IMG/VR virus record: IMGVR_UViG_3300033555_000014
Coordinates: 1 to 37,054 of that record
Strand: one strand, 5' to 3'
Source: a virus
DNA: 37,054 nt
The first letter of the stretch is position 1; every line of letters begins with the position of its first letter. Positions 3,418 through 37,054 of the stretch are shown here, one piece after another. The notes beneath the pieces are model-generated. The model worked only from the letters and a program-made list of their open reading frames with translations. It ran no database searches and was not told the origin of the DNA. Both the position numbers and the translations under genes were made by a program.

Positions 3418-4068
3418 ATGCTAAGAACAATCCACCTAGTGGGCAAGTTGTCCCGCTTCAGCAAGAAACCAGTGCAAATTGATGCCGACACGACCCAAAT
3501 GGTCATGCAAGGTCTCATTGCCATGTTCGGCCCATCTTTTAAGCAGATGGTTCGCGAAGGCGAATGGCACGTCACCCGCAACAAGAAACCAAAAGAGTGC
3601 AAAACTCTCGATGACAGCATCGGTGAAGAAGAACTCGCATTCGGCCTCGGCAACACAATTGAAATCTGGTTTGCACCGGCGGTCAAAGCTCTGTCGGCTG
3701 TAGTTCGTATTGTGGTTGGTGTGGTGCTCATTGTTGCAGGTATTTTCTTCAAGATGCCATTCCTCGTCAAGATGGGTGCCATGCTGGTACTTGGTGGTGT
3801 CAGCGAACTGTTGGCTCCTAAACCATCTGTCGGGCAGCAATCTCAGTCTGGGCAAAACCCGTCCTTCCTCTTCAACGGCACAGTAAATGTTACTGAACAA
3901 GGTGGTCCTGTACCAATTGTTTATGGACGTGTACGCCGCGCATCCTCGCTGGTTCTCTCAGCAGGCATCTCAACAGAAAATATGACAGTTACAGACACTG
4001 CACGTGGTAACACAACTACACGCGGCGGTACATACAAGAACGGTCAAGACTTCGTCCTGGAAGTATAA
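3418..4068 (+). CDS. I: Tail assembly protein I homologue (216 aa)
   Basis: SD aaaaggagtagcattATG. It has an N-terminal ubiquitin-like segment and a hydrophobic Gly/Ala/Val stretch. LVLGGVSELLAPKP...NPSFLFNGTVNVTEQGGPVPIVYGRVR matches lambda gpI MVLGGVAQMLAPK...SSLDNMVAQGNVLPVLYGEMR. Confidence 0.85.
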   Translation: MLRTIHLVGKLSRFSKKPVQIDADTTQMVMQGLIAMFGPSFKQMVREGEWHVTRNKKPKECKTLDDSIGEEELAFGLGNTIEIWFAPAVKALSAVVRIVVGVVLIVAGIFFKMPFLVKMGAMLVLGGVSELLAPKPSVGQQSQSGQNPSFLFNGTVNVTEQGGPVPIVYGRVRRASSLVLSAGISTENMTVTDTARGNTTTRGGTYKNGQDFVLEV

Positions 4069-7000
4069 TGGAAATCAAAAACGAAAACATTGTAGCAGCT
4101 GGTGGTTGCTTCCCAGCTGGAACGAAAATCAACACACCAATCGGCTACCGTCTCATTGAAGACTTGAAAGCCGGTGATGAGGTGTTTGCATTTACACTGG
4201 CACCACTCGAAGCTGGTATGCCTGACGAACAGCCAGGTCGTACATTCACAAAGACGATTACTGAAACTTTCAAGCACACATTTGGCGAGGTTGGCTACAC
4301 ATCACCTCTGCTGGAAATTACCTACCACGGTATTGCAGAACACGGTGCAATCCATGACGGGTTGTTGCTGGTTACCGGTAACCACTACATTCTGACACCT
4401 TCTCGCCAGTCAGCTGAAACTGACCCTGGCTTTGCACGTGCTGATGAGTTGCAAGTTGGTGACAAGCTGTGGACAGAATATGGCGATGCAGTTGAAATCG
4501 TTGCAATTACCCCAGCAGGTGAGTACGACTTCGTCTACAACTTTGAAGTTGCTGACTTCTCTACCTACATTGCTAGTGGCATCCGTGTCCACAACGGTGG
4601 TAGTGGTAAGAAACAACGTACACCAGTGCAGGCTCCTAACTCGGTTCGTACCAAGCAAGTTATTCGTGCTCTCTTCTGCCCAGGCGAAGGTGAGAGTGGT
4701 GGTCTGTTTAACTCAACTGACATTGCACAATCGGTTTACTTCGATGGTACACCACTGAAGAACTCTGATGGAACATACAACTTCAACAACATTTCAGTTG
4801 AACAACGTGTAGGTCTGCCTGACCAATCCATCATCAATGGCTTCTCAGCTGTTGAAGGCGAAGTTTTACTCGGTCTGCCAATTACTGCAGCTACACCAGC
4901 AACTCGTACTGTTTCTTCTGGTGCAATCGACGCAGTTCGCATCACCATTGAATTCCCACAAGGTTTGCAGAAGATTGACAAGAAAACAGGCGACGCTAAC
5001 GGCGCAACTGTAAACTTCGTCATCCAACGCCGTGTTGTAAACGGCACTTGGGAAACTGTCATCAGCCCAATCGTAACGGAAATGAGTTCTGGCCCGTTCA
5101 CCGCAGCATTCCACATTGCTCGCCCTGCTTCTACTGGTCCATGGGAATTCCGTGTTCAGCGTACTACACCTGACACCACCGCAAACGAAATCATCGACGA
5201 CACAGTTCTTGACAGCTACACTGAAATTCAAGACGTTAAACTGCCGTACAACAACCGTAGTCTTGTTGCAATTACTGTAGGCGCAGACAGCACCAACGGC
5301 AAAATCCCGTCAGTTGCATTTGACTGGGTTGGTGTCAAGGTAAAAGTTCCATCAAACTACAATGCGACAACTCGTGTGTACACTGGTGCATGGAACGGAA
5401 CCTGGTCGACAACTCTAGTTTCGTCAGACAACCCTGCATGGGTCATCTACGACTTGCTGACACACACTCGTTACGGCCAGGGCGAGCGCTTCAAAGAAAG
5501 CCAGCTGGACAAGTGGTCGTTCTACGAAGCTGCAAAGTACTGTGACGAACTCGTAAACGACGGTAAAGGTACTGGTACATTTGAACCACGCTTCACATTC
5601 AACGCACAGTTGATGGTTCGTGAGAATGCATGGAAGACTCTGAACACCATCGCTGCGACGATGAACGCGAAGCTGTACATGCACGCTGGTTTCGTCCGCG
5701 TGGCTCAAGACCGCCCTGCCACTCCGACACGCATCATTGCAAATTCGAATGCTCTAGAAGGTTTGTTCTCGTACTCGTCATCGTCTGTTGATGAAACCTA
5801 CACGATGTGCAATGTCACATACAACGACCCACTTGACAACTTCCTGCCGAAGACTGTCAGCGAAGTAGCTGCGACTGCTGACTTGACGCGCTATGGACTC
5901 AGCTCCGTCGACCTGGCTGCATACGGTGCAACCACCGAAGGCCAAGCTCGCCGCGCTGCAAAATGGGTAATCGACACCTCGCTTCGTCAAACCAGCATGG
6001 TAAACTTTGGTGTTTCGCTGGAGAATGCTGCATTTGAGCCGAACGAAATCTTCTACCTGATGGACTCAGACTACTCGCAGACAACTCAGGAAGGTCGTCT
6101 GGCAAACATTGCCGGTACCTCGCTGACACTTGACAAGTCCATCAACAAGACTGGTACAGGTACTTGGACGATTACCGTCTACGCAGCTGATGGTAACACG
6201 ATGGAAACCCGCACGATTACATCTGCAAACGGTGTTTCTGCCAACATTACTGTCAACGCAGCAATTACATCTGTAAAGGGCGCAGTCTACATCATTACTG
6301 GTTCTGTGTCTCCGCGTCAGTTCCGTATGGTAGGCATGACAGACAACGGCGACCTAACATACACGGTCACTGCGCTTCAACACGACCCTAACAAGTATGC
6401 TCGCATTGAACAAGGCATCATTCTTCCGGATGATGTGTACTGGCAGCCACCTAGTCTCAACAGCGTTAATGTACCAACAGGTTTGGTCATTGAACCACAA
6501 AGCGCAATCAACGAAGACGGGCAAGTTTTCCGCTTCCTGAACCTTTCGTGGAACCCACCAGCAGATGGCACGGCTCAACGTTACACTGTTCAGTGGCGTC
6601 GTAACCTACAACCGTTTACTATTGAGACGGTCAAGGACCCATTTGCTCGTATTACCAGCGATTTCTCGGGCAGCTACCAGTTCTACATCAATGCAGTCAA
6701 CTCAGCAAACGTAGCTTCGCCTACATTGTCGGGAACATATGTGTTCGAGTTTACTGGTGTTGGCTCACCAGTTTCTGTGCTTGGCCCAGTGTCTGCGCTG
6801 CAAATTGCTGGCGGTGGTACAATCTGGGACGGCGGTATTATGCGCGTCCAGTGGTTGGCACCAACAGAGATTGCCGGTGCAACACTCAAGGATTACAAGG
6901 TAGAACTTCAGACTCCAGGTGGAGCCGTGTTCAAAACGTTCTACACGAATGATGTCGGCTTCGCATACACTTACGAACAGAACTTGGCTGATGGTGGTCC

Positions 7001-9407
7001 TCGTACAACGATTCGTGTGAATGTATACGCACGTGACACATTGAACCGCGTCTCAACACAGACAACTTCAACCTTCAGCAGCCAAGCACCACAGACTATT
7101 ACGAACCTTCAAGTTCGTGGTACTGGTGGAACTGTGTTCACAACTCTTGACCTCGATGTTGAATGGACTGCAAACACTGTTGGTGGCCAACCATGGAAGA
7201 ATGACCCGAACTTTGGTTACTTCAAGGTTGAGATTCTGAGTGGAACAACTGTTCGCCGTACTGACCAAGTGTACGACAACAACTATGTTTACACTTATGC
7301 TGACAACATCAAGGACAACGGGGCAGAAACACCGTTGACTTCCATCATTGTTCGCGTCAGTGTTGTAACCAAGGCTGGTCTTGCTGGGCCATCTGGTTCT
7401 GCGACATTCACACCTGCTGCACCCCCGCAACCAACTAATCTCCAACTTGTCGGTGGTGGAACCGCAATTTCAACTGAAGACATCAGTGTTGAATGGACCG
7501 CTCTGTCTAATGGCTCAGCATACCATACACTTGACCTGTTCAAGTTCTACAAAGTTGAAGTTCTTGTTGGCACCACTGTCATGCGCACTGTGAACGTAAC
7601 TGATGGTGCTCGCTACACCTACCGTTTCGATGACAATATGAAGGACAATGGTCTTGGAACTCCTTCAGGCAACATTACGATTCGTGTAACCACAGTAAGT
7701 AAGTTCGGTGTTTCAAGCGCTCCAACCAGCACACTATTCACGGTCAAAGTTCCACCAACCGTAACCAATCTGACAATGAAGGGTGGTGGGTCGACGTACG
7801 CAGGTGAAGACCTGGAAGTTGTCTGGGATTGTTTAGACGAGAACGGAAAGCAGTTCGAAACCTACACTGCGTTCAAACACTACCGTGTAATCGTTTACAA
7901 AGGTGCTGGAACTACACCTCTTCGTACAGAGCTGGTACGAGTGCGTAACTTTGTTTACAGTCTGGCAATGAACCAGATTGACAACGGCGGCACAGCTATG
8001 AACAACCCCACAATTGAGGTTGTTGGTGTTAACACATTTAATGTCATCGGTGCAGAAGCTCAAATCAACTTCTCCAACCCACCTCCGTCTGCACCAGTCA
8101 TCGACTGCGAAGCTGGTGTCGAGATGGTGTTTGTCGATGTTGTACCAAACACTGCTGACAAAGATGTAATCGGTATTGAAGTACATGTGTCACAAACCGC
8201 GGGGTTCACACCATCCGGTAATACTGCTGGTGTAGGCACTTGTGTTTACAAAGGTAACGGTACTAGCTACTCGTTCAAAGCAACGCCAGGCACCTACTAC
8301 GTTCGCGTGGCTTGCTACGACATGTTCAACACCACAGGTCTTAACTACTCTGCACAAGCCATTGTGGTTGTTGCCGCGCCAATTACGTCCACCGATTACG
8401 AATTCCTAGGCTTCACTTGGACACCTAACAGCCCTACAACTAATTCAATTGGTTGGACTTCTGGCACCGTTCAGAAACGTGCTGGTGCATCAGGTGTTGG
8501 TACAACTTGGAACGTAACTGCAGGTTCGGCTGCTTGGTCATCTGCGTCGCTATACATCTACTGGGATGCAAACGTAACACCTACGACTTTCAAGAGTACG
8601 ACTGACCTAGCCATTGCAACAGGTATTGACAAGCGCATAGTTGCTTTGTATAAAGGTGGAACACAGCTGTTCTCGACTGATGGTAACCGTTTGATTGATG
8701 CATCAACAACAATCATCCCTAACACCATCTCTGCACCATTGTTGGTGACAGGTGCAGCTGTAATTACTGGCACAGCACAGATTGCTGATTTGATTGTTAC
8801 CGACGCGAAACTTGCTAATCTGACTGTTACAGCTGCAAAAATTGCAAATGCCGCAATTACAAACGCGAAGATTGGTAATGCACAGATTGACACGCTGAAG
8901 TTGACAAATGGCGCGGTTAATGACATCAAAACTGTTGTTACCTACCCGTACAGCAACTATTACAACATTGGTTTTAACACCACGGACAACTACTCAGTAT
9001 ACAGTTCGCCTTGGGCTACACCAGCACCAGCGGGTCTGCCAGGACCATTTAAGCAAACTGTGCTTATTCAATTGTTGATGCCACGTGTTATTTTCTTCCA
9101 AACCATGTGCATCCATACAGTATTTGCTTATGTTGAGTTCTTTGATGGTGCTTCATGGTTCAGCGGCCCAGGGCTACGTGGTAACAAAACCGTGGTTAAC
9201 CCAGCAGCTACAAATGCAACATACACCTCTGGAAATGATGCAAATGAGTTCTACCAAATTACACATGACGCAACACCAGGAATGCAGTACCGTATTAGAT
9301 TTGACATTACGTTCCACCAAACTATGACATCCACACCGCCACCTTATACCACGTCGGCTCGCTTCGACCACACTAACACGGTCACTGCTATTACGCAGAT
9401 GAAATAA
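4068..9407 (+). CDS. J: Tail tip / host-specificity protein J homologue (1779 aa) with an N-terminal mini-Hint domain and expanded FN3-like repeats
   Basis: TAATG overlap with I. NPAWVIYDLLTHTRYGQGERFKESQLDKWSFYEAAKYCDELVNDGKGTGTFEPRFTFNAQL aligns with lambda J NMAWCLWDMLTHPRYGMGKRLGAADVDKWALYVIGQYCDQSVPDGFGGTEPRITCNAYL. Residues 14-176 carry intein blocks A, B, F and G. Confidence 0.9.
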   Translation: MEIKNENIVAAGGCFPAGTKINTPIGYRLIEDLKAGDEVFAFTLAPLEAGMPDEQPGRTFTKTITETFKHTFGEVGYTSPLLEITYHGIAEHGAIHDGLLLVTGNHYILTPSRQSAETDPGFARADELQVGDKLWTEYGDAVEIVAITPAGEYDFVYNFEVADFSTYIASGIRVHNGGSGKKQRTPVQAPNSVRTKQVIRALFCPGEGESGGLFNSTDIAQSVYFDGTPLKNSDGTYNFNNISVEQRVGLPDQSIINGFSAVEGEVLLGLPITAATPATRTVSSGAIDAVRITIEFPQGLQKIDKKTGDANGATVNFVIQRRVVNGTWETVISPIVTEMSSGPFTAAFHIARPASTGPWEFRVQRTTPDTTANEIIDDTVLDSYTEIQDVKLPYNNRSLVAITVGADSTNGKIPSVAFDWVGVKVKVPSNYNATTRVYTGAWNGTWSTTLVSSDNPAWVIYDLLTHTRYGQGERFKESQLDKWSFYEAAKYCDELVNDGKGTGTFEPRFTFNAQLMVRENAWKTLNTIAATMNAKLYMHAGFVRVAQDRPATPTRIIANSNALEGLFSYSSSSVDETYTMCNVTYNDPLDNFLPKTVSEVAATADLTRYGLSSVDLAAYGATTEGQARRAAKWVIDTSLRQTSMVNFGVSLENAAFEPNEIFYLMDSDYSQTTQEGRLANIAGTSLTLDKSINKTGTGTWTITVYAADGNTMETRTITSANGVSANITVNAAITSVKGAVYIITGSVSPRQFRMVGMTDNGDLTYTVTALQHDPNKYARIEQGIILPDDVYWQPPSLNSVNVPTGLVIEPQSAINEDGQVFRFLNLSWNPPADGTAQRYTVQWRRNLQPFTIETVKDPFARITSDFSGSYQFYINAVNSANVASPTLSGTYVFEFTGVGSPVSVLGPVSALQIAGGGTIWDGGIMRVQWLAPTEIAGATLKDYKVELQTPGGAVFKTFYTNDVGFAYTYEQNLADGGPRTTIRVNVYARDTLNRVSTQTTSTFSSQAPQTITNLQVRGTGGTVFTTLDLDVEWTANTVGGQPWKNDPNFGYFKVEILSGTTVRRTDQVYDNNYVYTYADNIKDNGAETPLTSIIVRVSVVTKAGLAGPSGSATFTPAAPPQPTNLQLVGGGTAISTEDISVEWTALSNGSAYHTLDLFKFYKVEVLVGTTVMRTVNVTDGARYTYRFDDNMKDNGLGTPSGNITIRVTTVSKFGVSSAPTSTLFTVKVPPTVTNLTMKGGGSTYAGEDLEVVWDCLDENGKQFETYTAFKHYRVIVYKGAGTTPLRTELVRVRNFVYSLAMNQIDNGGTAMNNPTIEVVGVNTFNVIGAEAQINFSNPPPSAPVIDCEAGVEMVFVDVVPNTADKDVIGIEVHVSQTAGFTPSGNTAGVGTCVYKGNGTSYSFKATPGTYYVRVACYDMFNTTGLNYSAQAIVVVAAPITSTDYEFLGFTWTPNSPTTNSIGWTSGTVQKRAGASGVGTTWNVTAGSAAWSSASLYIYWDANVTPTTFKSTTDLAIATGIDKRIVALYKGGTQLFSTDGNRLIDASTTIIPNTISAPLLVTGAAVITGTAQIADLIVTDAKLANLTVTAAKIANAAITNAKIGNAQIDTLKLTNGAVNDIKTVVTYPYSNYYNIGFNTTDNYSVYSSPWATPAPAGLPGPFKQTVLIQLLMPRVIFFQTMCIHTVFAYVEFFDGASWFSGPGLRGNKTVVNPAATNATYTSGNDANEFYQITHDATPGMQYRIRFDITFHQTMTSTPPPYTTSARFDHTNTVTAITQMK
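4107..4595 (+). other. Hint (intein / bacterial-intein-like) domain embedded in J, 163 aa, no endonuclease domain, +1 residue Gly
   Basis: Block A is CFPAGTKINTPIGYRLIEDLKAGDEV, block B (TxxH) is LLLVTGNHYILT, and blocks F/G are YDFVYNFEVADFSTYIASGIRVHN. The domain is followed by GGSGKKQRTP. Confidence 0.8.
6768..8085 (+). repeat. Four tandem ~110-aa FN3-like modules within J (units start near 6768, 7089, 7425 and 7751)
   Basis: A pattern recurs in each unit: P.T(I/V)TNLq(v/l).G(G)G...D(l/i).VeW............(F/Y)K(V/Y)E(I/V)l.GTTV.RT..V.d..YtY....N..DNG.......I.V. Confidence 0.75.
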
Positions 9408-17794: not shown

Positions 17795-17807
17795 TATTTA
17801 TATAGAA
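17795..17807 (-). promoter_or_regulatory. Promoter-like 13-mer TTCTATATAAATA (copy 1)
   Basis: The identical 13-mer recurs at 19258-19270. Both copies lie 35-45 nt upstream of a leftward start codon, in intergenic DNA, and contain a TATAAA -10-like core. Confidence 0.45.
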
Positions 17808-20434: not shown

Positions 20435-20818
20435 TTATTCCTTAATGGTTGGTGCTGCGCGAAGGACCATTTGGGCAAACGCTATGAGTGCTGGGTCGAT
20501 TATTTCGGTATGGGTCATAATTTGTTTGTTCGAGTTCTGGTCAGTTGCAAGGCGAGTAAACAGTTGTGGAACATTCTTGCAGTAGTAGATTGGTGGCATT
20601 GTGTTGTATTCGGTCATTTTGACTCCTTTTGCGTGAGCGAGAGCTTCGGTGAGGGTAATTGGATTCTCGAAGATGGTGCCTGCATGTTTTGGCGGGTAAA
20701 TCGTACCAATGTGATTACCACCAGTAGGTGCGTCGAACAATTCAATCGACACAATTTTGCTGCAAAACTGGCCATCTACTGGAGGTAATGTAATTTCTTG
20801 GTTGTTGAATTCAGTCAT
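20435..20818 (-). CDS. Hypothetical early protein (127 aa)
   Basis: Its SD, aaaggagtaacaccATGac, shares a 19-nt initiation region with gene 16902..17090. Confidence 0.6.
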   Translation of the reverse strand: MTEFNNQEITLPPVDGQFCSKIVSIELFDAPTGGNHIGTIYPPKHAGTIFENPITLTEALAHAKGVKMTEYNTMPPIYYCKNVPQLFTRLATDQNSNKQIMTHTEIIDPALIAFAQMVLRAAPTIKE

Positions 20819-20838
20819 GGTGTTACTCCTTTTAGTTT

Positions 20839-20879
20839 GGGTCAGCAGCTGTCAAGCAACACGAATGTTTTGCTGACCC
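20839..20879 (-). other. Intercistronic stem-loop immediately 5' of the 20818 ribosome-binding site
   Basis: gggtcagca (20839-20847) pairs with tgctgaccc (20871-20879) around a 23-nt loop. There is no T-run on either strand. Confidence 0.35.
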
Positions 20880-20887
20880 TAATTCTT

Positions 20888-21169
20888 TTAGTTTTGTGAT
20901 GCGATGGTGATTACTTCTTGGATGACAGCATACACCTTTGTGTATTTCGGCTGAGAGAGGTAGTCGTGCTGTGTTGCAACAGACAAAATGATGTAACCGT
21001 CTTCGGATTTCTCAACCATGTCATTGAGAGCGCGTAACACATTTGGGTGCAGCAATTCGTGGGCTATTGGTGCCCAGTGTTTAATATGTTTATAGCGTTG
21101 CTCACCCTGGACTTTCTTTGTTGGTACTTCTACCCAGGTTTCGATGGAGACTGTTCCGAGACGTTTCAT
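20888..21169 (-). CDS. Hypothetical early protein (93 aa)
   Basis: SD aaggaataacatcATG. I recognise no family. Confidence 0.6.
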   Translation of the reverse strand: MKRLGTVSIETWVEVPTKKVQGEQRYKHIKHWAPIAHELLHPNVLRALNDMVEKSEDGYIILSVATQHDYLSQPKYTKVYAVIQEVITIASQN

Positions 21170-21180
21170 GATGTTATTCC

Positions 21181-21444
21181 TTAAAGCGCGGCAATAATGT
21201 GTGTCATAATTGTGCGGGCGCGCTTGACGTCTCCGTTGTCAATTATTGTAACAAGGTCAGCAAGATGACCCTTAACACCAATTTTAGTGTTCAGGTGGTT
21301 CTGTCCTTCTTCTGCCAGTGCAACCTTGTAGATTTCGATGAGGTCAGTTTTGTCTTGCAACTCTTGGCGAAGTGCGTTGATGGTAAAATCTTTGATGCCT
21401 TCGCTGAGTGGCTTTGCTGACTTGTTAGATTTGATGATGGTCAT
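21181..21444 (-). CDS. Hypothetical early protein (87 aa)
   Basis: SD aaaaggaaaacatcaATG. The predicted protein is helical. Confidence 0.6.
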   Translation of the reverse strand: MTIIKSNKSAKPLSEGIKDFTINALRQELQDKTDLIEIYKVALAEEGQNHLNTKIGVKGHLADLVTIIDNGDVKRARTIMTHIIAAL

Positions 21445-21457
21445 TGATGTTTTCCTT

Positions 21458-21637
21458 TTAGATTGCGTTTTTGAGTTCTGCTTCAGCTTTTGCCATTACT
21501 TGGCGACCAAGGTGGCGGGTCAAGCTGTTTGCGTTTTGGTGGTAACCACCTGTAATGAGACCTCGCTGGATTGCTTCAGCGGTAAGTGCTGCGTACAATG
21601 CTGCGAGTTCAAGGTTTGTCATTTGCTGAGTATTCAT
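21458..21637 (-). CDS. Small helical protein (59 aa), first gene after the 21.7-kb site cluster
   Basis: It is not in the track, being one residue below the cut-off. I translated it by hand: MNTQQMTNLELAALYAALTAEAIQRGLITGGYHQNANSLTRHLGRQVMAKAEAELKNAI*. A ggag lies 11 nt upstream. Confidence 0.5.
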   Translation of the reverse strand: MNTQQMTNLELAALYAALTAEAIQRGLITGGYHQNANSLTRHLGRQVMAKAEAELKNAI

Positions 21638-21689
21638 ATGGGCATGCTCCGTTTCGTTGTGTTGTTATATTATATATAGACTTTACCAT

Positions 21690-21695
21690 ATTATA
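21690..21695 (-). promoter_or_regulatory. Perfect TATAAT -10 hexamer on the - strand, inside the AT-rich tract 21661-21700
   Basis: The - strand reads ctcgTATAATatggtaaagtctatatataatataac, 53 nt upstream of the ATG at 21637. No good -35 element is present. Confidence 0.35.
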
Positions 21696-21724
21696 CGAGA
21701 ACTTTGGGGATGTTTTCGGCGTTG

Positions 21725-21883
21725 AACTTGATTAATTTCCAGTGGTGCCCCTAAGTCCTTGATTCTTAAGGGAAAACAACTTGATTAATTTCTGCATGGG
21801 CCTCAATTTTGATTAATTACAAGTCGACTTTTAAGTTCCTTTAAAATCAAGGACTTAGACTTGATTAAATAAAGTCGACTTTT
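21725..21883. repeat. Site cluster 1: repeated ACTTGATTAA(T/A) boxes, AAGTCGACTTT boxes and a 14-bp inverted repeat
   Basis: The 15-mer aacttgattaatttc occurs at 21725 and 21778 (53 bp apart). ttgattaa also occurs at 21809 and 21861. aagtcgacttt occurs at 21821 and 21872. ctaagtccttgatt (21751-21764) is the inverted partner of aatcaaggacttag (21845-21858). Confidence 0.8.
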
Positions 21884-22051
21884 CTAGTCACAATCGACAA
21901 CAGGAAGACCAAGCTCTTGACGAATTTTAGCCTCTTCCAATTCAAACAACGTCTGGTCGAGTGCACCCTTGTAGGCATCAAGTGAGATTTCAAGTTCCTC
22001 AGCACGTTGTTTGTAATCGATTTCGTCTGGGCGAGAGCTAATTTTGGCCAT
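21884..22051 (-). CDS. Small acidic helical protein (55 aa)
   Basis: It is not in the track. It forms a TAATG overlap with the 187-aa gene. The protein is MAKISSRPDEIDYKQRAEELEISLDAYKGALDQTLFELEEAKIRQELGLPVVDCD*, and its stop abuts site cluster 1. Confidence 0.5.
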   Translation of the reverse strand: MAKISSRPDEIDYKQRAEELEISLDAYKGALDQTLFELEEAKIRQELGLPVVDCD

Positions 22052-22614
22052 TATGCGAGAGCACGACGTGCTTCAGCAGCCTCGACAGCGGCGAGACGAG
22101 CTTCTGTGTCATCCCAAATAACACCCATTTTTTTCATCTTACGAGCTTTTTTCTTTTCTAACGTAGCGTCAACACGCTGCATCATTGCATGAGGCGGGAA
22201 CCACACTTCAGGCAAGTTTTTTACATCATGACCAAGATGTTGAATGAGTTTTAGTATGAATCCGTATTTTGCAAGATTCAAAGACCAACAAGTTGGTGTT
22301 CCCTTCCCGTTTGCCATCTTGTAACCAATTTGCTTGACAGTGAAGAAAGACATCCATTCTGAAAGACCTTCTTTGCCGTATGCAATTTCAATGTGACACT
22401 TGCTGATTTCAACTTCCAGGTACCGTTCGCCATATTCGTTTGGTTCACAGTTGAACGCTTGTACAAACGCTGGAAACAACAGCTCGTCAAGCATATTTTT
22501 GCGGCGTTCAGCGTCACGTGCCAAGCGTAGTTCGATGGACATTGGCTTGCGACCTGAATTTTTGCGGGCACCACCGTGTTGTTTTTCTTCTTGCTGAATA
22601 ATTTCTTGTTGCAT
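22051..22614 (-). CDS. Hypothetical 187-aa basic protein, first gene of the leftward arm; candidate DNA-binding regulator or initiator
   Basis: SD gaggagcttaacATG. It has an N-terminal GGARKNSGRKP basic motif and a Lys/Arg/Ala-rich C-terminal helix (EKKKARKMKKMG...AAVEAAEARRALA). The gene is bracketed by the two site clusters. Confidence 0.5.
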   Translation of the reverse strand: MQQEIIQQEEKQHGGARKNSGRKPMSIELRLARDAERRKNMLDELLFPAFVQAFNCEPNEYGERYLEVEISKCHIEIAYGKEGLSEWMSFFTVKQIGYKMANGKGTPTCWSLNLAKYGFILKLIQHLGHDVKNLPEVWFPPHAMMQRVDATLEKKKARKMKKMGVIWDDTEARLAAVEAAEARRALA

Positions 22615-22642
22615 GTTAAGCTCCTCTTGGTTTGTCTAAGTT

Positions 22643-22652
22643 ATTTATAGCA
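22643..22652 (-). promoter_or_regulatory. Extended -10-like element TGCTATAAAT for the leftward arm
   Basis: The - strand reads ...aagTTGTGGtcattcttgattttGcTATAAATaacttagacaaaccaagaggagcttaacATG. A cttgatt box overlaps the spacer. Confidence 0.45.
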
Positions 22653-22702
22653 AAATCAAGAATGACCACAACTTTTTTGTGGTCAACGCGAATTTGACAG
22701 AG

Positions 22703-22767
22703 ACCGGGTCAACTTGATTAAACTGAGCTTAAGTAATAGAAAGTCGACTTTTTTTAATCAAGTTGTG
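22703..22767. repeat. 65-bp perfect direct repeat, copy A, with an internal 13-bp inverted repeat
   Basis: The repeat is accgggtcaacttgattaaactgagcttaagtaatagaaagtcgactttttttaatcaagttgtg. CAACTTGATTAAA (22710-22722) is inverted against TTTAATCAAGTTG (22753-22765). The 30-nt spacer contains CTTAAG and GTCGAC. Confidence 0.9.
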
Positions 22768-22799
22768 AAATCGACAGAAAACAAGACCGTCGATTTCAC
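22765..22799. promoter_or_regulatory. Perfect 11-bp inverted repeat between the two 65-bp repeats
   Basis: The element is GTGAAATCGAC-agaaaacaagacc-GTCGATTTCAC. Confidence 0.6.
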
Positions 22800-22842
22800 C
22801 CGAAAATTTTTTGTGGTTGCAAGACACTACCAAAATACACGA

Positions 22843-22907
22843 ACCGGGTCAACTTGATTAAACTGAGCTTAAGTAATAGAAAGTCGACTTTTTTTAATCA
22901 AGTTGTG
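22843..22907. repeat. 65-bp perfect direct repeat, copy B (140 bp from copy A)
   Basis: It is identical in sequence to 22703-22767. The inverted-repeat arms lie at 22850-22862 and 22893-22905. Confidence 0.9.
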
Positions 22908-23056
22908 TCTGTTGATGACTGGGTGAAAAGATGTCGGCGATGAACCTGCCTCCACTTTTCACCAGAAAAATTATTCTCCACGTGAAATACACGAGACCAA
23001 TCTCCTTCTCAGCTGAGTTCGCCGCAAGCGGCTCACAGCGGATGCACGTTGCTCTC

Positions 23057-23097
23057 GGGTGAAGACGAGCAGAGACCAGGCCCGCTCGTCTTCACCC
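23057..23097. other. GC-rich perfect 14-bp stem-loop in the divergent intergenic region
   Basis: GGGTGAAGACGAGC (23057-23070) pairs with GCTCGTCTTCACCC (23084-23097) around a 13-nt loop. There is no flanking T-run on either strand. Confidence 0.6.
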
Positions 23098-23215
23098 GCT
23101 CACACGTACCCCGCTTTCCCTTCGCGAAATTTTGTTTTCAGGTGCAAGTCGAACACCAGTTACCTCGTTCTGTACAAATTGCCCTAAATACACACATCGA
23201 ATACGAAAGACCCAT

Positions 23216-23575
23216 ATGACACCCCTTGTAACTTACACGTTGCTCCTTCTCCTCTTCGTAATTTCGAGCTGGTTCATCTACCACATCCGCAAAGACAAAC
23301 GAGCGAATCCGCTCGACTTGATTACCACCCCTGACACAGGTCGACTTTCAGCTGCCAAAATTGGTCAACTGACAGGCGTACTCGTTTCCACCTGGGTAGT
23401 CATCTCATCTGCCTCCTCTGGCAAATTAACCAGCGAAATTTTCCTTTTGTACCTGACGTACACAGCTGGTGTCGACCTGTTCGGCAAATTCCTCCGTTAC
23501 AAACAAACTGTGCCACCTGCAGCTGAACCAGTACCAGCAGAAGAAATACCCATAACAAATAAGGAAGGCGAATAG
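23216..23575 (+). CDS. Putative holin (119 aa, 2-3 TM segments)
   Basis: ATG at 23216 sits in the context aaagacccatATGa, the same context as the next gene. TM segments are VTYTLLLLLFVISSWFIY, IGQLTGVLVSTWVVISSA and IFLLYLTYTAGVDLF, with a charged C-tail. It is the first gene of the lysis cluster. Confidence 0.55.
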   Translation: MTPLVTYTLLLLLFVISSWFIYHIRKDKRANPLDLITTPDTGRLSAAKIGQLTGVLVSTWVVISSASSGKLTSEIFLLYLTYTAGVDLFGKFLRYKQTVPPAAEPVPAEEIPITNKEGE

Positions 23576-23586
23576 CAAAGACCCAT

Positions 23587-23931
23587 ATGAAACCAATATT
23601 CACACACATAACCAGCAACATAATGTTTTACTTCAAATTGGCTGCCATTGTTCTGCTCCTCGGAGTTGGTTACATGGCAGCCCATTTCTACCTCAAATAC
23701 GAGGAAGCGAAAGGTAAAATTCAGGAACTTTCAGCTCAAATCGAATTCAACAAGAAACAGAAGGAAAAATCAGACAAGGCAAACGCCGACTTGCAAATTG
23801 CTCTCAACAAGCAACAAGAGGTAGTCACGCGAACAATCACTAAGATTGTGAAGATGCCGGTCACCGTACAAGAGAAATGTATGTCTGATGTATTGCGTGA
23901 ATCTCTTAAGGAGACTCAATATGGTGAATAG
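23587..23931 (+). CDS. Putative i-spanin (Rz-like; N-terminal TM + coiled coil, 114 aa)
   Basis: The TM segment is FKLAAIVLLLGVGYMAAHF. It is followed by a Lys/Glu/Gln-rich helix and a C-terminal ...VQEKCMSDVLRESLKE. Confidence 0.5.
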   Translation: MKPIFTHITSNIMFYFKLAAIVLLLGVGYMAAHFYLKYEEAKGKIQELSAQIEFNKKQKEKSDKANADLQIALNKQQEVVTRTITKIVKMPVTVQEKCMSDVLRESLKETQYGE

Positions 23932-24322
23932 CAGAGACGTGGATGAACTTTCGCCACTTGCAAAAATGTACGCAATTCGTTTCCTCAACGAAGCTGCTGT
24001 GCAAAACATTCCGGTTCTAATTACCTGTACCTACAGGGACAGTGAATTTCAGGACTACCTGTATGCACAAGGACGCACTCGACCAGGCAACAAAGTAACC
24101 AAGGCGAAAGGTGGGCAATCTGCCCACAACTTCAGGGTGGCTTTCGATTTTTGCCCCCTAAATGTGTTTGGTAAACCTGACTGGAACAACCTGGATGCTT
24201 TCAAGAAGCTGGGTGCCATTGGCAAGAAGGTTGGGTTAGAGTGGGGCGGAAACTGGACCTCGTTTCCGGACATGCCTCACATGCAGGTGCCTGGTTTCAA
24301 AATTCCAGTGGCGAAAAAATAA
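23921..24322 (+). CDS. Endolysin, peptidase M15 (VanY / L-alanyl-D-glutamate endopeptidase type, 133 aa)
   Basis: SD aaggagactcaatATG. YRDSEFQDYLYAQGRT...GGQSAHNFRVAFDF...GLEWGGNWTSFPDMPHMQ matches the M15 H..D...H zinc signature as in the T5-type endolysin. Confidence 0.8.
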   Translation: MVNSRDVDELSPLAKMYAIRFLNEAAVQNIPVLITCTYRDSEFQDYLYAQGRTRPGNKVTKAKGGQSAHNFRVAFDFCPLNVFGKPDWNNLDAFKKLGAIGKKVGLEWGGNWTSFPDMPHMQVPGFKIPVAKK

Positions 24323-24699
24323 TGGAACTCACCTCTACCTCCTACCGAGTTCTGTCACTGTTACCATTCCAGCATACCGTCATCCTCATCTCGTCAGAGG
24401 CGGAATGGGATGACATTAAAGCTGACCTGGAAAGCAGCTCGGAAAATTGGCTTGCAGGTGGTGCAGCTTGTGTTCGCAATCGCGAATCGAGCAGCATTGT
24501 TTGCATCAACCCAACCGGCGAGTTGCACACATTTGTCGGTTACATTGCACACGAAGCAACTCACGTCTTCCAGAACCTGTGCATACAAGCATGCGAACCC
24601 GACCCCAGCCATGAATTCGAAGCCTACTACATCGGCTACATTACCGGCTGGCTCCTACAAGAAACAATCCTCGAATTCATGGAGAATCAGGAAATATGA
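24322..24699 (+). CDS. Small HExxH protein (putative zinc metallopeptidase fold, 125 aa)
   Basis: It forms a TAATG overlap with the endolysin. The motif is YIAHEATHVFQNLCIQACEPDPSHEFEAYY, that is HExxH plus Glu 17-19 residues downstream. Confidence 0.45.
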   Translation: MELTSTSYRVLSLLPFQHTVILISSEAEWDDIKADLESSSENWLAGGAACVRNRESSSIVCINPTGELHTFVGYIAHEATHVFQNLCIQACEPDPSHEFEAYYIGYITGWLLQETILEFMENQEI

Positions 24700-26206: not shown

Positions 26207-26448
26207 ATAAAGCAGTTAAATTCTCCATCGACAATGGCGCCCGCAAAACACCACAAAACTTGGCTGGCCTATTGGATGAAGCTTTAGTTCACGTTAGCTC
26301 TATGGAAGGCCCAGGCAAACGTCGCGCACTACACTTGATTGAAGTCGTTCAACTGTATGTGTTGCATGGCATGTCGACTCAAACAACCTATGCTGAGTAC
26401 GGTAACATGACTAAGGAAGCAGTCATGGCCGCAATAGAGGCTAGTTGA
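26203..26448 (+). CDS. Hypothetical protein (81 aa)
   Basis: It forms an ATGA overlap with the upstream gene. I recognise no motif. Confidence 0.5.
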   Translation: MNKAVKFSIDNGARKTPQNLAGLLDEALVHVSSMEGPGKRRALHLIEVVQLYVLHGMSTQTTYAEYGNMTKEAVMAAIEAS

Positions 26449-34796: not shown

Positions 34797-37054
34797 GCAG
34801 AATCATGAAATTGTCATTAATGTACGCGAACAGGGCTCACAAGGTGCCCGTCGCAACATTGATGAACTCAACGACAGCGCTAACCGCGCATCCCGTGGAG
34901 GTATTAGCGGGCTCTCAAACGCCACAAGCGAACTTGCTGACCGTATGGGCAATCTACCTGGTCCTCTAGGTAGTGCAGCGAGTGGTATTTCCGGAATGAT
35001 TTCCCAAGTCTCGTCTCTCACATCAGGTGTTGGCGGTGGTACAATTGCACTTGGCGGGCTTGCACTTGGACTAGCAGCTGCCGGTGTAGCCGCAGTGGTA
35101 ATGGGTGAACAAATAGCATTGGCTGCTGATGACGCTGCTGAGATGGCTGACAAGATGGGTGTAACTATTGAACGTCTTGAAGCCCTCAAGGTAATCGCAG
35201 AAGACAATTCAGGTTCTGCAGAAGGTTACGCAAAAACTCTCGAAAAAGTTGCAAAGTCAATGACAAAGATTGATGAGGACAGCCCTAAAGCCGCCAAGGC
35301 AATGGCATCCCTTGGTCTGTCGTTTGAAGAAATGCAACGTCTGAACCCTGACCAACAGTTGGCTGCAATAGTCAACGCCTATGAAAATCTTGGTCGTAGT
35401 CAAGAAGCTCTTGCAGGTGCAACTATGCTTGCCGGCGGCGGTTTCCGTGACCTGATTCCAATGGTAAAAGCTCTTGAAGAAGATGCAGGCGCTGCTACAG
35501 CACAATCAATTGAATTCGGCAATGTAATCGGCATTGACCTAGTTGAAATGGGTGCACGCGCTGAGAAAGCTAACCGCAAAGTTAGTGACGCTTGGGGTGG
35601 TTTGACAAAAGAATTCTCGAAGGGCTCAGCTGACCCTTGGATTCAGTTCAAGAGTGGTGCTGCCGACGCATTGAATTGGATTCGTACTGTCCTTGCAGCA
35701 TGGCGCGCGTCTAATGCAGAGATGAATGGCAAAGCACAACGCGGCGTTGACGGTGGTAAGGGCGGAACTATTGGTCTCATCGGTGGGTTTGCTGAAGGTG
35801 TGCGCAGCACACTGTATGGTGCTAAACCTCCTGAACCCGCGCCAACAATTAAAATCAATCGCAACAGCACACCTAGCGGTAAGTCTTGGGACGAAATCAA
35901 CCAAGAAAAGCTTGCTGCTAAAGAGAAAAAGAAGCTTGCGGATGCAGGCGAAGCAGAAATAAAGAAGCGTAAATCCGCCTCTGCAGGTGAATCTGCATCT
36001 CGTCGTGCTGCCTCGGCTCGTGACTCTGCTGCAAACAAAGCAGAATCTGAAGCTCTTCGTAAAGCAAAAGAATCTGAGCGTACTATTGCTCGCGAAATCG
36101 CTGACCAAGCACGCGAACAGATTCGCCTCGACAAGGAACGCACTCAGGAAATCGAACGCCAAGTTGAAGCAATGAAGCGTATTGGTGAACAGGGTGTTGG
36201 TCGTATTGCTGGAACAGCATCAGCAATGGCTAGCCAAGTTTCCTTCCAGCGCCGCTCTGTTGGTATGGGTGCAATTGACCGCGACTCTCTTTCCGGTACA
36301 GACAAAATTGGTGCTGATGCAGACCGTTCCCGCGCTGAACTTAACAGTAACTTCAATGATGGTGACCGTTTCGACTTTAGCCGCATTGTCGAGTACAACA
36401 AGCAGTTGGCTTCCATCAACGATGCTGAGCGCATGGCCACGGCTGTCATGGGCGAAGAGACCGAGAAGCGTAAAGCTTTCCAGGCTGACTGGACGAACGG
36501 CGCAAGTAACGCCATCGCAACCTACGTCGAGAGTGCAAACGACATGGCTGGTCAAATTAGCCAGCTCGGTGACAAGATGTTCAAGGGTATGGAAGATGCT
36601 CTCGTCTCCTTCGTAACCACCGGCAAGGCATCGTTCGCTGACTTCGCACGTTCGGTCATTGCAGACCTGGTCCGCATCATTGCAAAGAAAGCAATCGCTA
36701 ACCTTGCTGAATCTGCGGCTGGTATGTTCGGCTTCGCAAATGGCGGTGCATTCTCAGGTGGCACACAGTTCTTCGCAAATGGTGGTGTGGTAAATCGTGC
36801 TACAGGTTTTGGTATGTCAGGTGGCAAAATGGGTGTAATGGGCGAAGCTGGTCCAGAAGCAATCATGCCCCTGAAACGTGGCAGTGATGGTAAGCTGGGT
36901 GTTGCAATGTCTGGTGGTGGTGGAGGTGGTGGAAACAACTTCTCGCAAGTCAACAACATTACCATCCAGTCTTCTGGCGACGGAGACAGCGACAAGCAAC
37001 AAGCTGACATGGTTGCAGCTGCAATCGACAAGAAGTTCGCAGAAAACATGGCGC
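34789..37054 (+). CDS. H: Tape measure protein (771 aa in total; runs off the window end and finishes at 1..177)
   Basis: It is absent from the ORF track because it has no in-window stop. It starts with an ATGGCTGA overlap with the T frame and the SD ggaaggaaaataATG. I translated it by hand: MAEQNHEIVINVREQGSQGARRNIDELNDSANRASRGG..., with a hydrophobic GGGTIALGGLALGLAAAGVAAVV, a Lys/Glu/Arg coiled coil, and a lambda-H-like C-terminus (FANGGAFSGGTQFFANGGVVNRATGFGMSGGKMGVMGEAGPEAIMPLKRGSDGKLGV). Confidence 0.85.
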   Translation, partial: MAEQNHEIVINVREQGSQGARRNIDELNDSANRASRGGISGLSNATSELADRMGNLPGPLGSAASGISGMISQVSSLTSGVGGGTIALGGLALGLAAAGVAAVVMGEQIALAADDAAEMADKMGVTIERLEALKVIAEDNSGSAEGYAKTLEKVAKSMTKIDEDSPKAAKAMASLGLSFEEMQRLNPDQQLAAIVNAYENLGRSQEALAGATMLAGGGFRDLIPMVKALEEDAGAATAQSIEFGNVIGIDLVEMGARAEKANRKVSDAWGGLTKEFSKGSADPWIQFKSGAADALNWIRTVLAAWRASNAEMNGKAQRGVDGGKGGTIGLIGGFAEGVRSTLYGAKPPEPAPTIKINRNSTPSGKSWDEINQEKLAAKEKKKLADAGEAEIKKRKSASAGESASRRAASARDSAANKAESEALRKAKESERTIAREIADQAREQIRLDKERTQEIERQVEAMKRIGEQGVGRIAGTASAMASQVSFQRRSVGMGAIDRDSLSGTDKIGADADRSRAELNSNFNDGDRFDFSRIVEYNKQLASINDAERMATAVMGEETEKRKAFQADWTNGASNAIATYVESANDMAGQISQLGDKMFKGMEDALVSFVTTGKASFADFARSVIADLVRIIAKKAIANLAESAAGMFGFANGGAFSGGTQFFANGGVVNRATGFGMSGGKMGVMGEAGPEAIMPLKRGSDGKLGVAMSGGGGGGGNNFSQVNNITIQSSGDGDSDKQQADMVAAAIDKKFAENMA
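36928..37054. repeat. Terminal direct repeat copy 2 (identical to 1..127)
   Basis: Read directly; see copy 1. Confidence 0.95.

Follow-up and report, generated by a model that had tools for sequence, protein, structure and literature searches.

The sequence considered here is the virus record IMGVR_UViG_3300033555_000014 of IMG/VR, analysed over its whole length of 37,054 nucleotides (nt; in the following: the window). Since an identical stretch of 127 nt is present at both of its ends (1-127, 36928-37054), the window corresponds to a complete, circularly assembled genome of ~36.9 kb. Pfam and PHROG scans revealed siphovirus genes (TerL, portal (DUF4055), tail tube, a J-like tip protein of 1779 amino acids (aa), M15 endolysin, spanins); a megablast search of 20800-24400 against INPHARED gave no match, i.e. 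no close known relative at the DNA level. The plus-strand genes from 23216 around to 16846 are those of lysis, packaging and structure; the leftward arm, from 22614 down to ~16900, consists of ~15 small genes without Pfam or PHROG function, among them no recognisable replication, recombination or transcription protein (both libraries were applied to 20 early or small proteins and Pfam only to the large structural and packaging proteins, with several open reading frames (ORFs) of less than 90 aa left out). The region of interest heads this leftward arm: it includes the gene of a 187-aa protein, the 600-nt non-coding stretch 22615-23215 between the divergent arms and the 246-nt gap 21638-21883 between the genes of a 55-aa and a 59-aa protein. 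In an earlier note, made from the sequence alone, two clusters of short recurring boxes had been described in these non-coding stretches. The elements of the region are:

22051-22614, minus strand: gene of the 187-aa protein, founding (window) member of an uncharacterised phage protein family and proposed box-binding regulator
21884-22051, minus strand: 55-aa ORF, overlapping the 187-aa gene by ATGA (translational coupling); product predicted to be helical and acidic
21725-21883, plus strand: cluster 1, six half-sites, 45-200 nt upstream of the next leftward promoter; half-sites at 21727 (+), 21758 (+, weak), 21780 (+) and 21851 (-, weak), bipartite half-sites at 21808 (+, with AAGTCGACTT at 21821) and 21860 (+, with AAGTCGACTT at 21872)
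21661-21700, minus strand: AT-rich tract with two promoter-like -10 elements for the operon of the 59-aa gene, TATAAT (21690-21695) and TCTATATATAATA (21668-21680)
22642-22652, minus strand: TGCTATAAATA, promoter-like -10 element of the 187-aa gene, which holds TAAATA and ends 27 nt upstream of the ATG
22654-22660, minus strand: CTTGATT half-site directly upstream of the -10 element TGCTATAAATA, the upstream half of the putative promoter-bracketing operator
22663-22685, minus strand: terminator-like hairpin, a 9-bp stem followed by TTCTTGATTT, just upstream of the promoter of the 187-aa gene
22703-22767: 65-bp repeat, copy 1, with the inverted half-sites CAACTTGATTAAA (22710-22722) and TTTAATCAAGTTG (22753-22765) and the bipartite site AAAGTCGACTTTTTTTAATCAAGT (22740-22763, read on the minus strand)
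22765-22799: perfect hairpin with an 11-bp stem (GTGAAATCGAC, 13-nt loop, GTCGATTTCAC) between the two 65-bp units
22843-22907: 65-bp repeat, copy 2, with half-sites at 22850-22862 and 22893-22905 and a bipartite site at 22880-22903
23316-23347, plus strand: paired site ACTTGATTA-N13-GGTCGACTTT within the first rightward gene

The sequence features that the earlier note had listed (both clusters, the repeats, the hairpin and the TATAAT) were all recovered in their places: Cluster 1 contains the 15-mer AACTTGATTAATTTC at 21725 and 21778, 53 bp apart, two further TTGATTAA boxes (21809, 21861), two AAGTCGACTT boxes (21821, 21872) and an inverted repeat that extends to 21 nt (21751-21771/21838-21858, 90% complementarity); TATAAT is present on the minus strand at 21690-21695 in the AT-rich tract; cluster 2 comprises the perfect 65-bp direct repeats 22703-22767 and 22843-22907, the inner 13-nt arms of which are separated by N30 and the identity of which breaks off abruptly at both borders. 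Three details of that description had to be revised. Within the 65-bp unit, AAGTCGAC does not occupy a central position but adjoins the right arm, resulting in the arrangement TTGATTAA-N4-AAGTCGACTT; the boxes are not strictly confined to the two intergenic regions, as indicated by the paired site at 23316-23347 and by weaker sites at 26333 (ACTTGATTGAAGTCG) and 26444 (GTTGATTAA); and the leftward arm contains further sizeable genes besides the 187-aa gene, which is succeeded by ORFs of 225, 198, 170, 160, 142 and 127 aa. The boxes are strongly concentrated: Eight of the nine genome copies of TTGATTAA fall within 21721-22910, i.e. 3.2% of the genome (P=1e-11), as do 10 of the 16 copies of CTTGATT (P=8e-12) and every copy of AGTCGACT (P ~1e-11). 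The degenerate core YTTGAWW occurs 11 times in the two intergenic regions versus 2.5 +/- 1.5 times in dinucleotide shuffles (0/1000 reach 11).

The earlier note had distinguished two box types; by their arrangement, these do not behave as two independent operators. The AAGTCGACTT palindrome is always located 4 nt from a TTGATTAA box, and both form a 24-nt composite, ACTTGATTAAA(T/A)AAAGTCGACTTT, which is present in four copies, two on the plus strand in cluster 1 (21809, 21861) and two on the minus strand in cluster 2, that face each other across the genes and are 96% complementary across the 187-aa gene; the exact composite pattern (TTGATTAANNNNAAGTCGACTT) was absent from IMG/VR. GTCGAC begins 13 nt after the T of TTGA, with only A/T in the spacer. 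Among the relatives of the phage (see below), the same 13-nt offset separates TTGA from GTGAC in L004 (TTGATTTATTACGTGAC) and L011 (TTGAAAAAAAACAGTGAC), the offset in L018 is one nt shorter (12; TTGA-N8-TGAC, TTGATTTATTTTGACGCGG), and L002 and L013 contain a shorter version (TTGATTGTTTGACAC). In the simplest reading of these sequences, both box types would be parts of a single bipartite half-site, TTGA-(A/T)9-GTCGAC. Composites acting as TTGATT-N17-(-10) promoters that point into the operon from both sides were considered and discarded on account of their poor -10 candidates (TATTAC, TAAGTT, CTAGTC).

The remote homology searches and the structure prediction that the earlier note had recommended for the 187-aa protein characterised it as novel: No significant match was obtained in any library, i.e. 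in Pfam, PHROGs, the PDB sequences (profile search), or by Foldseek in PDB and BFVD. A word-indexed protein search matched the query with itself only; an exhaustive HMMER scan of 1.84 billion cluster representatives yielded 23 relatives, to which profile searches added more. tblastn searches with the 187-aa protein and with P0025 found no homologue in 50,697 phage records (INPHARED) or 72,556 plasmids (PLSDB). The family is small, its members originating from metagenomes and one bacterial genome only; apart from the chromosomal island of L013 (see below), they occur in the context of phages or prophages. They carry no functional name (at most "hypothetical protein") and, with the exception of one AT_hook, no precomputed Pfam domain. 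Their length ranges from 150 to 210 aa, with a conserved N-terminal motif, GGxRxGAGR(K/P), and a conserved core, ELxFPA...LSK..I..AYG..GL..W...F...K.GG....GY.T.W...LGH.IKDLP...FPP.AM..R. In the window protein the basic N-terminal arm reads GGARKNSGRKP and includes the AT-hook-like SGRKP; the AT-hook profile PF02178 scored in only one of 21 members (P0003, E=8e-6). Based on the family alignment, an AlphaFold2 model with a mean predicted local distance difference test (pLDDT) of 90.5 was obtained (the prediction from the single sequence, with a pLDDT of 41, was useless and was discarded). According to this model, a disordered basic arm (residues 1-25) is succeeded by a long helix (27-54), a core of strand, helix, beta-hairpin (strands 91-95 and 108-112 with a loop in between) and helix, and a C-terminal helix of 45 residues. 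One family member, P0004 (335 aa), is a tandem duplication of the whole domain with an own basic GRP arm in each half, which suggests, on the sequence level, that two family domains work together as a dimeric unit.

The 55-aa ORF had been regarded as the partner of the 187-aa gene; this "gene pair" did not hold as a unit, as no counterpart of the 55-aa gene occurs beside any homologue in the loci examined. As a result of this missing conservation, it is probably not part of the core module. No HTH repressor (HTH_3, Cro or CI) was recognised among the 187-, 55-, 59-, 87- and 93-aa proteins, which belong to no Pfam or PHROG family.

The protein family was compared at 15 independent homologue loci (L002, L004-L009, L011-L013, L015-L019), which differ widely in G+C content (41-65%) and encode proteins with 26-50% identity to that of the window; the structural module is common to the window and L006 only (TerL 45%, portal 37%). 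In the relatives, a long non-coding stretch is succeeded by the family gene as the first gene. Upstream of this gene, a large palindrome (arms 13-35 nt, total 56-77 bp) was detected in L002, L004, L007, L011, L013, L016, L017, L018 and L019; its outer ends read YTTGA(T/A) in all those loci but L017 (for examples see L019, GTTTGATTAAATCCCA; L016, TTGATTATTCTAAGTCATA; L004, AACTTGATTTATTACGTGAC). In L011, two perfect 61-bp copies with sharp borders are present 272 bp apart; the sequence of this unit is otherwise unrelated to that of the window, and judged by their layout the duplicated units are of the same design as cluster 2. YTTGAWW is ~8-fold enriched in the 500 nt upstream of the homologues (24 in 2872 nt versus 33 in 32216 nt; Fisher 4e-12), a number far above that of dinucleotide shuffles (mean 3.9, maximum 11). 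Where visible, the same boxes are also found at the promoter that comes next downstream of the family gene, namely in L016 (paralogous promoter regions at 273 and 978) and in L011 (inverted TTGATTA boxes at 1722 and 1810), an arrangement that parallels cluster 1 of the window. A lack of box conservation in related phages, which according to the earlier note would have refuted its proposal, was not observed: next to the homologues in 14 other loci, the core of the half-site is found again, as are the large palindromes and an operator that brackets the promoter. In six loci (L005, L006, L008, L009, L015, L016) only 57-303 nt of the contig precede the family gene, and the Logan contig L001 of the window's own phage ends exactly 30 nt (k-1) into the 65-bp repeat; in consequence, perfect repeats at this place probably break the assemblies of many of these phages and explain their tendency to end just upstream of the family gene.

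The sharply bounded, perfect repeats resemble inserted units, and the 24-nt composite arms (21859-21882 with 22740-22763 or 22880-22903), which are 96% complementary and flank the gene pair, could be taken for the terminal inverted repeats of a mobile cassette, or the perfect repeats for recombination or inversion sites; in L011, moreover, a 165-bp segment is enclosed by a large inverted structure that is made up of the two units and the hairpins next to them. This explanation appears extremely improbable: Neither protein exhibits a transposase, recombinase or nuclease signature, there is no evident target-site duplication, a matching downstream repeat is missing where the gene abuts the next gene (L002, L005, L007), and the same half-site occurs singly at the promoter.

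In 10 of the first 11 loci, TAAATA is located 27-51 nt upstream of the ATG of the family gene (shuffles reach at most 6). In 11 of 14 family-gene promoters, TGAw precedes this hexamer by 9-13 nt and wTCAr follows it at 5-16 nt; of 50 other TAAATA sites in these loci, not one possesses both halves (Fisher 5e-10). The bracketing halves constitute an inverted half-site pair, ~30-36 bp apart and centred on the -10 element, i.e. the signature of an operator that straddles the -10 of the gene itself.

Based on these observations, the boxes are most likely the binding sites of the 187-aa protein, and the latter a sequence-specific, autoregulated DNA-binding transcription regulator with operators at early promoters; this reading of the sequences is held with moderate confidence. 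The recognition half-site would most likely be (A/C)CTTGATTAA with the family core YTTGAww, bipartite in four copies; reading TTGA and/or GT(C)GAC would fall to the folded domain, and the basic, AT-hook-like arm would lie in the A/T-rich spacer. The protein probably acts as a dimer or higher oligomer. The 187-aa gene would be the first of the leftward early operon, transcribed from TGCTATAAATA, and its product would bind the half-site abutting its own -10 element as well as both palindromic 65-bp units at a distance of 60-260 bp upstream. Binding at this promoter would regulate the 187-aa gene, most probably by repression, since the conserved operator straddles the -10 element. By additional binding to the six-site array upstream of the next leftward promoter (AT-rich tract, operon of the 59-aa gene), the expression of the two early transcription units would be coupled, and the facing composites of the two clusters would allow a DNA loop enclosing the 187-aa gene. 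The data show the box statistics, the family membership and the conservation of the cis architecture and of the operator around the promoter; that the boxes are bound by this protein, in which oligomeric state and with which sign of regulation, and that a loop is formed are the parts of the mechanism that we infer. Of the earlier proposal of a candidate control or origin module, the control part, a module of cis-elements and a novel protein, is thus retained; the origin has no positive support beyond the geometry.

Several points weigh against this interpretation. The Foldseek searches with the model gave no significant match (best E=0.036 in PDB and 0.0034 in BFVD, template modelling (TM) score <0.35); the weak PDB matches are mostly winged-helix proteins (MarR, ArsR, PadR, TFIIE; all E>=0.036, TM <0.3), and the proposed DNA binding draws on these winged-helix-like similarities, the basic arm and the co-evolving sites. 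A separation of the half-sites by 30-51 bp would not be usual for a simple dimer. In the window itself, the downstream half of the promoter operator is degenerate (AACCAAG, ~22627-22633), and the palindrome of L017 lacks TTGA. The A/T-rich core resembles the -35 hexamer (TTGACA), so that some boxes could be promoter elements. Finally, as no recognisable replication protein is encoded by the phage, its initiator must hide among the early genes without assigned function.

The resemblance of TTGATT to the -35 consensus also underlies the view that the boxes are bound by some other factor, either a host nucleoid or regulatory protein or, on the AAGTCGACTT palindrome, the 55-aa or 59-aa product, or that they are -35-like elements or terminators without a dedicated binder. 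AAAGTCGACTTT is indeed palindromic over 12 bp, like the sites to which small dimeric repressors bind. A generic scan for sigma-70 promoters and terminators performed no better on the window than on shuffles and revealed no canonical sigma-70 promoter at the box regions, a result that would suit this view as well. It is nevertheless considered very unlikely: The half-site core and its geometry track the protein family across hosts of 41-65% G+C and at 26-50% identity, which neither a host factor nor another phage protein would explain; the 55-aa gene lacks conservation, and the spacing of 5-8 nt between box and -10 element does not match that of a -35 element. On inspection, there was no agreement of the boxes with the consensus of IHF (WATCAANNNNTTR), FNR (TTGAT-N4-ATCAA) or DnaA.

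The order of the sites in cluster 1 is reminiscent of a replication origin. Five of its six boxes are co-oriented, with spacings of 31, 22, 28 and 52 bp, one is inverted, and the conserved part comprises 8-15 bp per repeat, compared with at least three direct repeats of ~17-22 bp in helical register in an iteron array; the 15-mers lie 53 bp apart, and a tract of 80% A+T adjoins them. In an iteron-type replicon, the 187-aa protein would be the replication initiator, cluster 1 the origin and the inverted repeats of cluster 2, beside the promoter of the 187-aa gene, the autorepression operator. The initiators RepA of P1, RepE of F and RepA of pPS10 repress their own gene through an inverted-repeat operator, and origins of the SaPI type lie 3' of the rep gene. 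Repeats on both sides of the gene are found in P1 incC-repA-incA, F ori2/RepE, pPS10 RepA and SaPI rep-ori as well as in the window, with direct repeats beside an A+T-rich tract on one side and inverted repeats at the promoter on the other; in addition, the phage encodes no recognisable replication gene, and gene and sites co-travel as a module, as replicons do.

The AT-rich tract, which the earlier note had regarded as a candidate DNA-unwinding element, turned out not to be distinctive. On the minus strand, TCTATATATAATA is preceded by the TATAAT 10 nt upstream, and the tract is situated ~30 nt from the 59-aa gene. Promoter-like elements of the same class (TCTATATAAATA) are also present at 17795, 19258, 22642 and 25372, and the tract is paralogous to the promoter region at ~19258, both having ...ATATGGTA...TCTATATA.AATA in common; it is therefore best read as the next leftward promoter. 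That this promoter class (TCTATAtAAATA) recurs elsewhere in the genome, in three places without boxes, weighs against an origin. Unlike the iteron replicons, moreover, neither a Rep_3 nor a winged-helix Rep (WH1-WH2) match was obtained by Pfam, PHROG, PDB profile or Foldseek PDB searches (E<1e-3), no homologue was found in the 72,556 plasmids, and the DnaA box TTATCCACA is absent from the window (relaxed matches only at 23998 and 24779). The conserved elements of the relatives are palindromes rather than direct iteron arrays. Neither do the gene neighbourhoods point to replication: In the relatives, the family gene is located 0.4-4 kb upstream of terS/TerL or beside a methylase gene (upstream of and co-oriented with terminase genes in L006, L011, L016 and L017; preceding the methylase gene in L002), and its neighbours are genes of terminase, methylase, endonuclease VII and ribbon-helix-helix (RHH) proteins, never those of helicase, primase or loader; one homologue (L013) even resides in a non-phage island beside an RHH gene. 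In the window, the 187-aa gene is divergent from terS, 3.9 kb away. The GC skew tracks the direction of transcription only and is uninformative on the origin. Taken together, an iteron-type replicon is an unlikely, though not a negligible, explanation.

The TAAATA hexamer is by no means restricted to the promoter of the 187-aa gene. The window contains 19 copies, 18 of which are co-oriented with the local genes (P=4e-5) and nine of which are located in the intergenic 6.9% of the genome, over-long ORF calls included (P=2e-6). Examples of the motif are (minus strand for 17795, 19258, 20297 and 22642):

17795, 19258, 22642 (187-aa gene) and 25372: first flavour, TCTATA(T)AAATA
10639, 16262, 25727, 29805 and 32810: second flavour, (T)TC(G/A)C-TAAATA, upstream of late genes
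23185 and 20297 (minus strand): looser variants of the second flavour, CCC-TAAATA and AAC-TAAATA, respectively
3355: a further example

The motif was also found at gene starts of all family-bearing relatives, including those rich in G+C (59-65%; e.g. L006, L011, L016, L002, L013), and the pattern was not seen in the control siphovirus Scapp; all loci compared had been picked for carrying the family protein, and Scapp is the single outside control. T4 MotA or gp55/gp33, P1 Lpa and RinA would be functional analogues if the 187-aa protein were a promoter-specificity or late-activator factor, which would let the host RNA polymerase use TAAATA promoters without a -35 element by means of TGAw ~10 nt upstream, the palindromes serving as a titration or autoregulatory site. 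The strand orientation and gene-start association of TAAATA agree with such a role, as does the position of the gene at the head of an operon that leads toward terS/TerL in L006, L011, L016 and L017; TGAw is found 8-12 nt upstream in five of 21 non-family TAAATA promoters versus ~1 expected. A dedicated phage activator, Lpa, is required at the late promoters of P1 (PMC8198154). The pairing of TGAw with wTCAr is, on the other hand, specific to the family gene's own promoter (11/14 versus 0/50), most of the late-type promoters (TTCGC-TAAATA) lack a TTGA element, and homology to gp55, MotA, Lpa or RinA was not found in PHROGs or Pfam; given, in addition, the selection of the loci and the single control for the co-occurrence of TAAATA, we regard this function as very improbable.

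As in the promoters of T4 late genes and of P1 Lpa, an A/T-rich, -10-like motif without a -35 element precedes many co-oriented genes by 20-50 nt, and the promoter of the 187-aa gene itself belongs to this T4-late-like TAAATA class. T4-type late promoters read TATAAATA, with NATAAATA or CTAAATA as variants in T4-like phages (PMC1524935). Unlike T4, the phage is a 37-kb siphovirus, and no homologue of gp55, gp33, gp45 or Lpa was detected (Pfam/PHROGs). For the 187-aa protein, Foldseek gave no sigma-like match in PDB, and there was no Pfam or PHROG match to late-operon activators of the RinA/ArpU/LtrC type. A more far-reaching proposal would combine both lines: the 187-aa family could be the key factor of a TAAATA transcription programme in a clade of small siphoviruses without a gp55-like sigma, a new class of regulator with a novel fold and half-sites three to five helical turns apart that represses its own TAAATA promoter and licenses or switches others. 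It must be rated as quite improbable.

Returning to the 187-aa protein as an autoregulated regulator, the arrangement at its gene resembles that of lambda CI/Cro with OR/OL and of the auxiliary operators of lac and gal: The gene of the regulator adjoins its own promoter, which bears operators and is part of a divergent control region, another promoter ~0.9 kb away has a second cluster of operators, the sites are multiple and would be cooperative, and regulator and operators co-travel as an exchangeable module. The analogy to OL/OR drawn in the earlier note holds only loosely, as the window contains no divergent repressor gene and the half-sites are 30-50 bp apart, versus operators of 17 bp in lambda. 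In detail, their separation is ~30-36 bp at the promoter and, within the large palindromes, 44-51 bp, and tandem 17-bp operators are not formed; the operators are duplicated as perfect 61-65-bp units, and neither a divergent repressor partner nor an integrase is encoded by the phage; HTH_3, Cro or CI homology was not detected (Pfam/PHROG). A further parallel is offered by p4 of phi29, the sites of which (CTTTTT-N15-AAAATG) are situated between the divergent early and late promoters and which acts together with the histone-like p6. In both cases, a small phage regulator would recognise inverted, A/T-rich half-sites at wide spacing, several sites being located in the region that separates the early from the late operon, and an N-terminal arm or hook (here predicted) would contact the DNA; half-site sequence and spacing differ, and Foldseek gave no PDB match to p4.

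A regulator with its own operators is a familiar kind of system; what the libraries searched do not describe is the family of the protein with its fold and half-site code, and a long-range operator design with duplicated palindromes. If the interpretation is correct, a new family of phage DNA-binding regulators would be defined together with its recognition code and operator architecture, and family genes and sites, the former currently without annotation in any library, would become directly annotatable in metagenomic phages. The unusual geometry of the operators (half-sites 30-50 bp apart, perfectly duplicated 61-65-bp units, one operator straddling the -10 element) would be of relevance to protein-DNA recognition and looping. 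The TAAATA motif suggests that phages lacking a recognisable transcription factor have a promoter class in common, and would make their early/late switch experimentally approachable.

Besides the boxes, the non-coding stretch between the divergent arms contains further elements. The terminator-like hairpin at 22663-22685 may insulate the promoter of the 187-aa gene from leftward read-through; a second copy of its TTTTTTGTGGT arm is present at 22804-22817, ahead of the second 65-bp repeat, and is left over from an earlier and larger duplication (~140 bp), in which the 65-bp core alone has remained identical. Toward the rightward operon, the following features were found:

22908-23215: structured non-coding DNA, ~300 nt, from cluster 2 to the first rightward gene (ATG at 23216); z -3.5 (plus strand) and -5.8 (minus strand)
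23053-23101: hairpin with an 18-bp stem, inside the structured stretch
23182-23191: CCCTAAATAC, promoter-like element of the rightward operon of lysis, packaging and structural genes

A structured, G+C-richer non-coding stretch beside the box region was observed not only in the window but also in L013 (7620-7900, z -9.1), L002 (1816-2060) and L012 (1-270). Common to the betaproteobacterial relatives are a hairpin at the 5' side (CCGCC-GAAG-GGCGG) and two at the 3' side, which GTGAATGCGG connects, with compensatory changes in 20 of 61 predicted pairs and no Rfam match; the stretch may represent a new non-coding RNA or a DNA structure. No Rfam family was detected in the window or in eight related loci, and no tRNA was found.

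Some of the relatives are noteworthy in themselves. L013 is Beta proteobacterium AAP65 (LJHW01000020.1:117895-134290), in which the family gene is part of a chromosomal island beside comEC, with no obvious complete prophage; it is divergent from the RHH gene and near PIN and HATPase_c_3 genes, and TAAATA precedes three genes of the island. In L011, an endonuclease VII-like ORF directly succeeds the family gene, as in L004 an endonuclease VII gene abuts the homologue, and the large terminase (4603-6552) of L011 carries an intein splicing domain after its nuclease domain. In the window, the 1779-aa tail tip protein (4068-9407, plus strand) opens with a Hint/pretoxin-HINT domain (residues 14-178), succeeded by FNIII-A_GpJ and Phage-tail_3; this intein-like module at the N-terminus is unusual for a tail protein.

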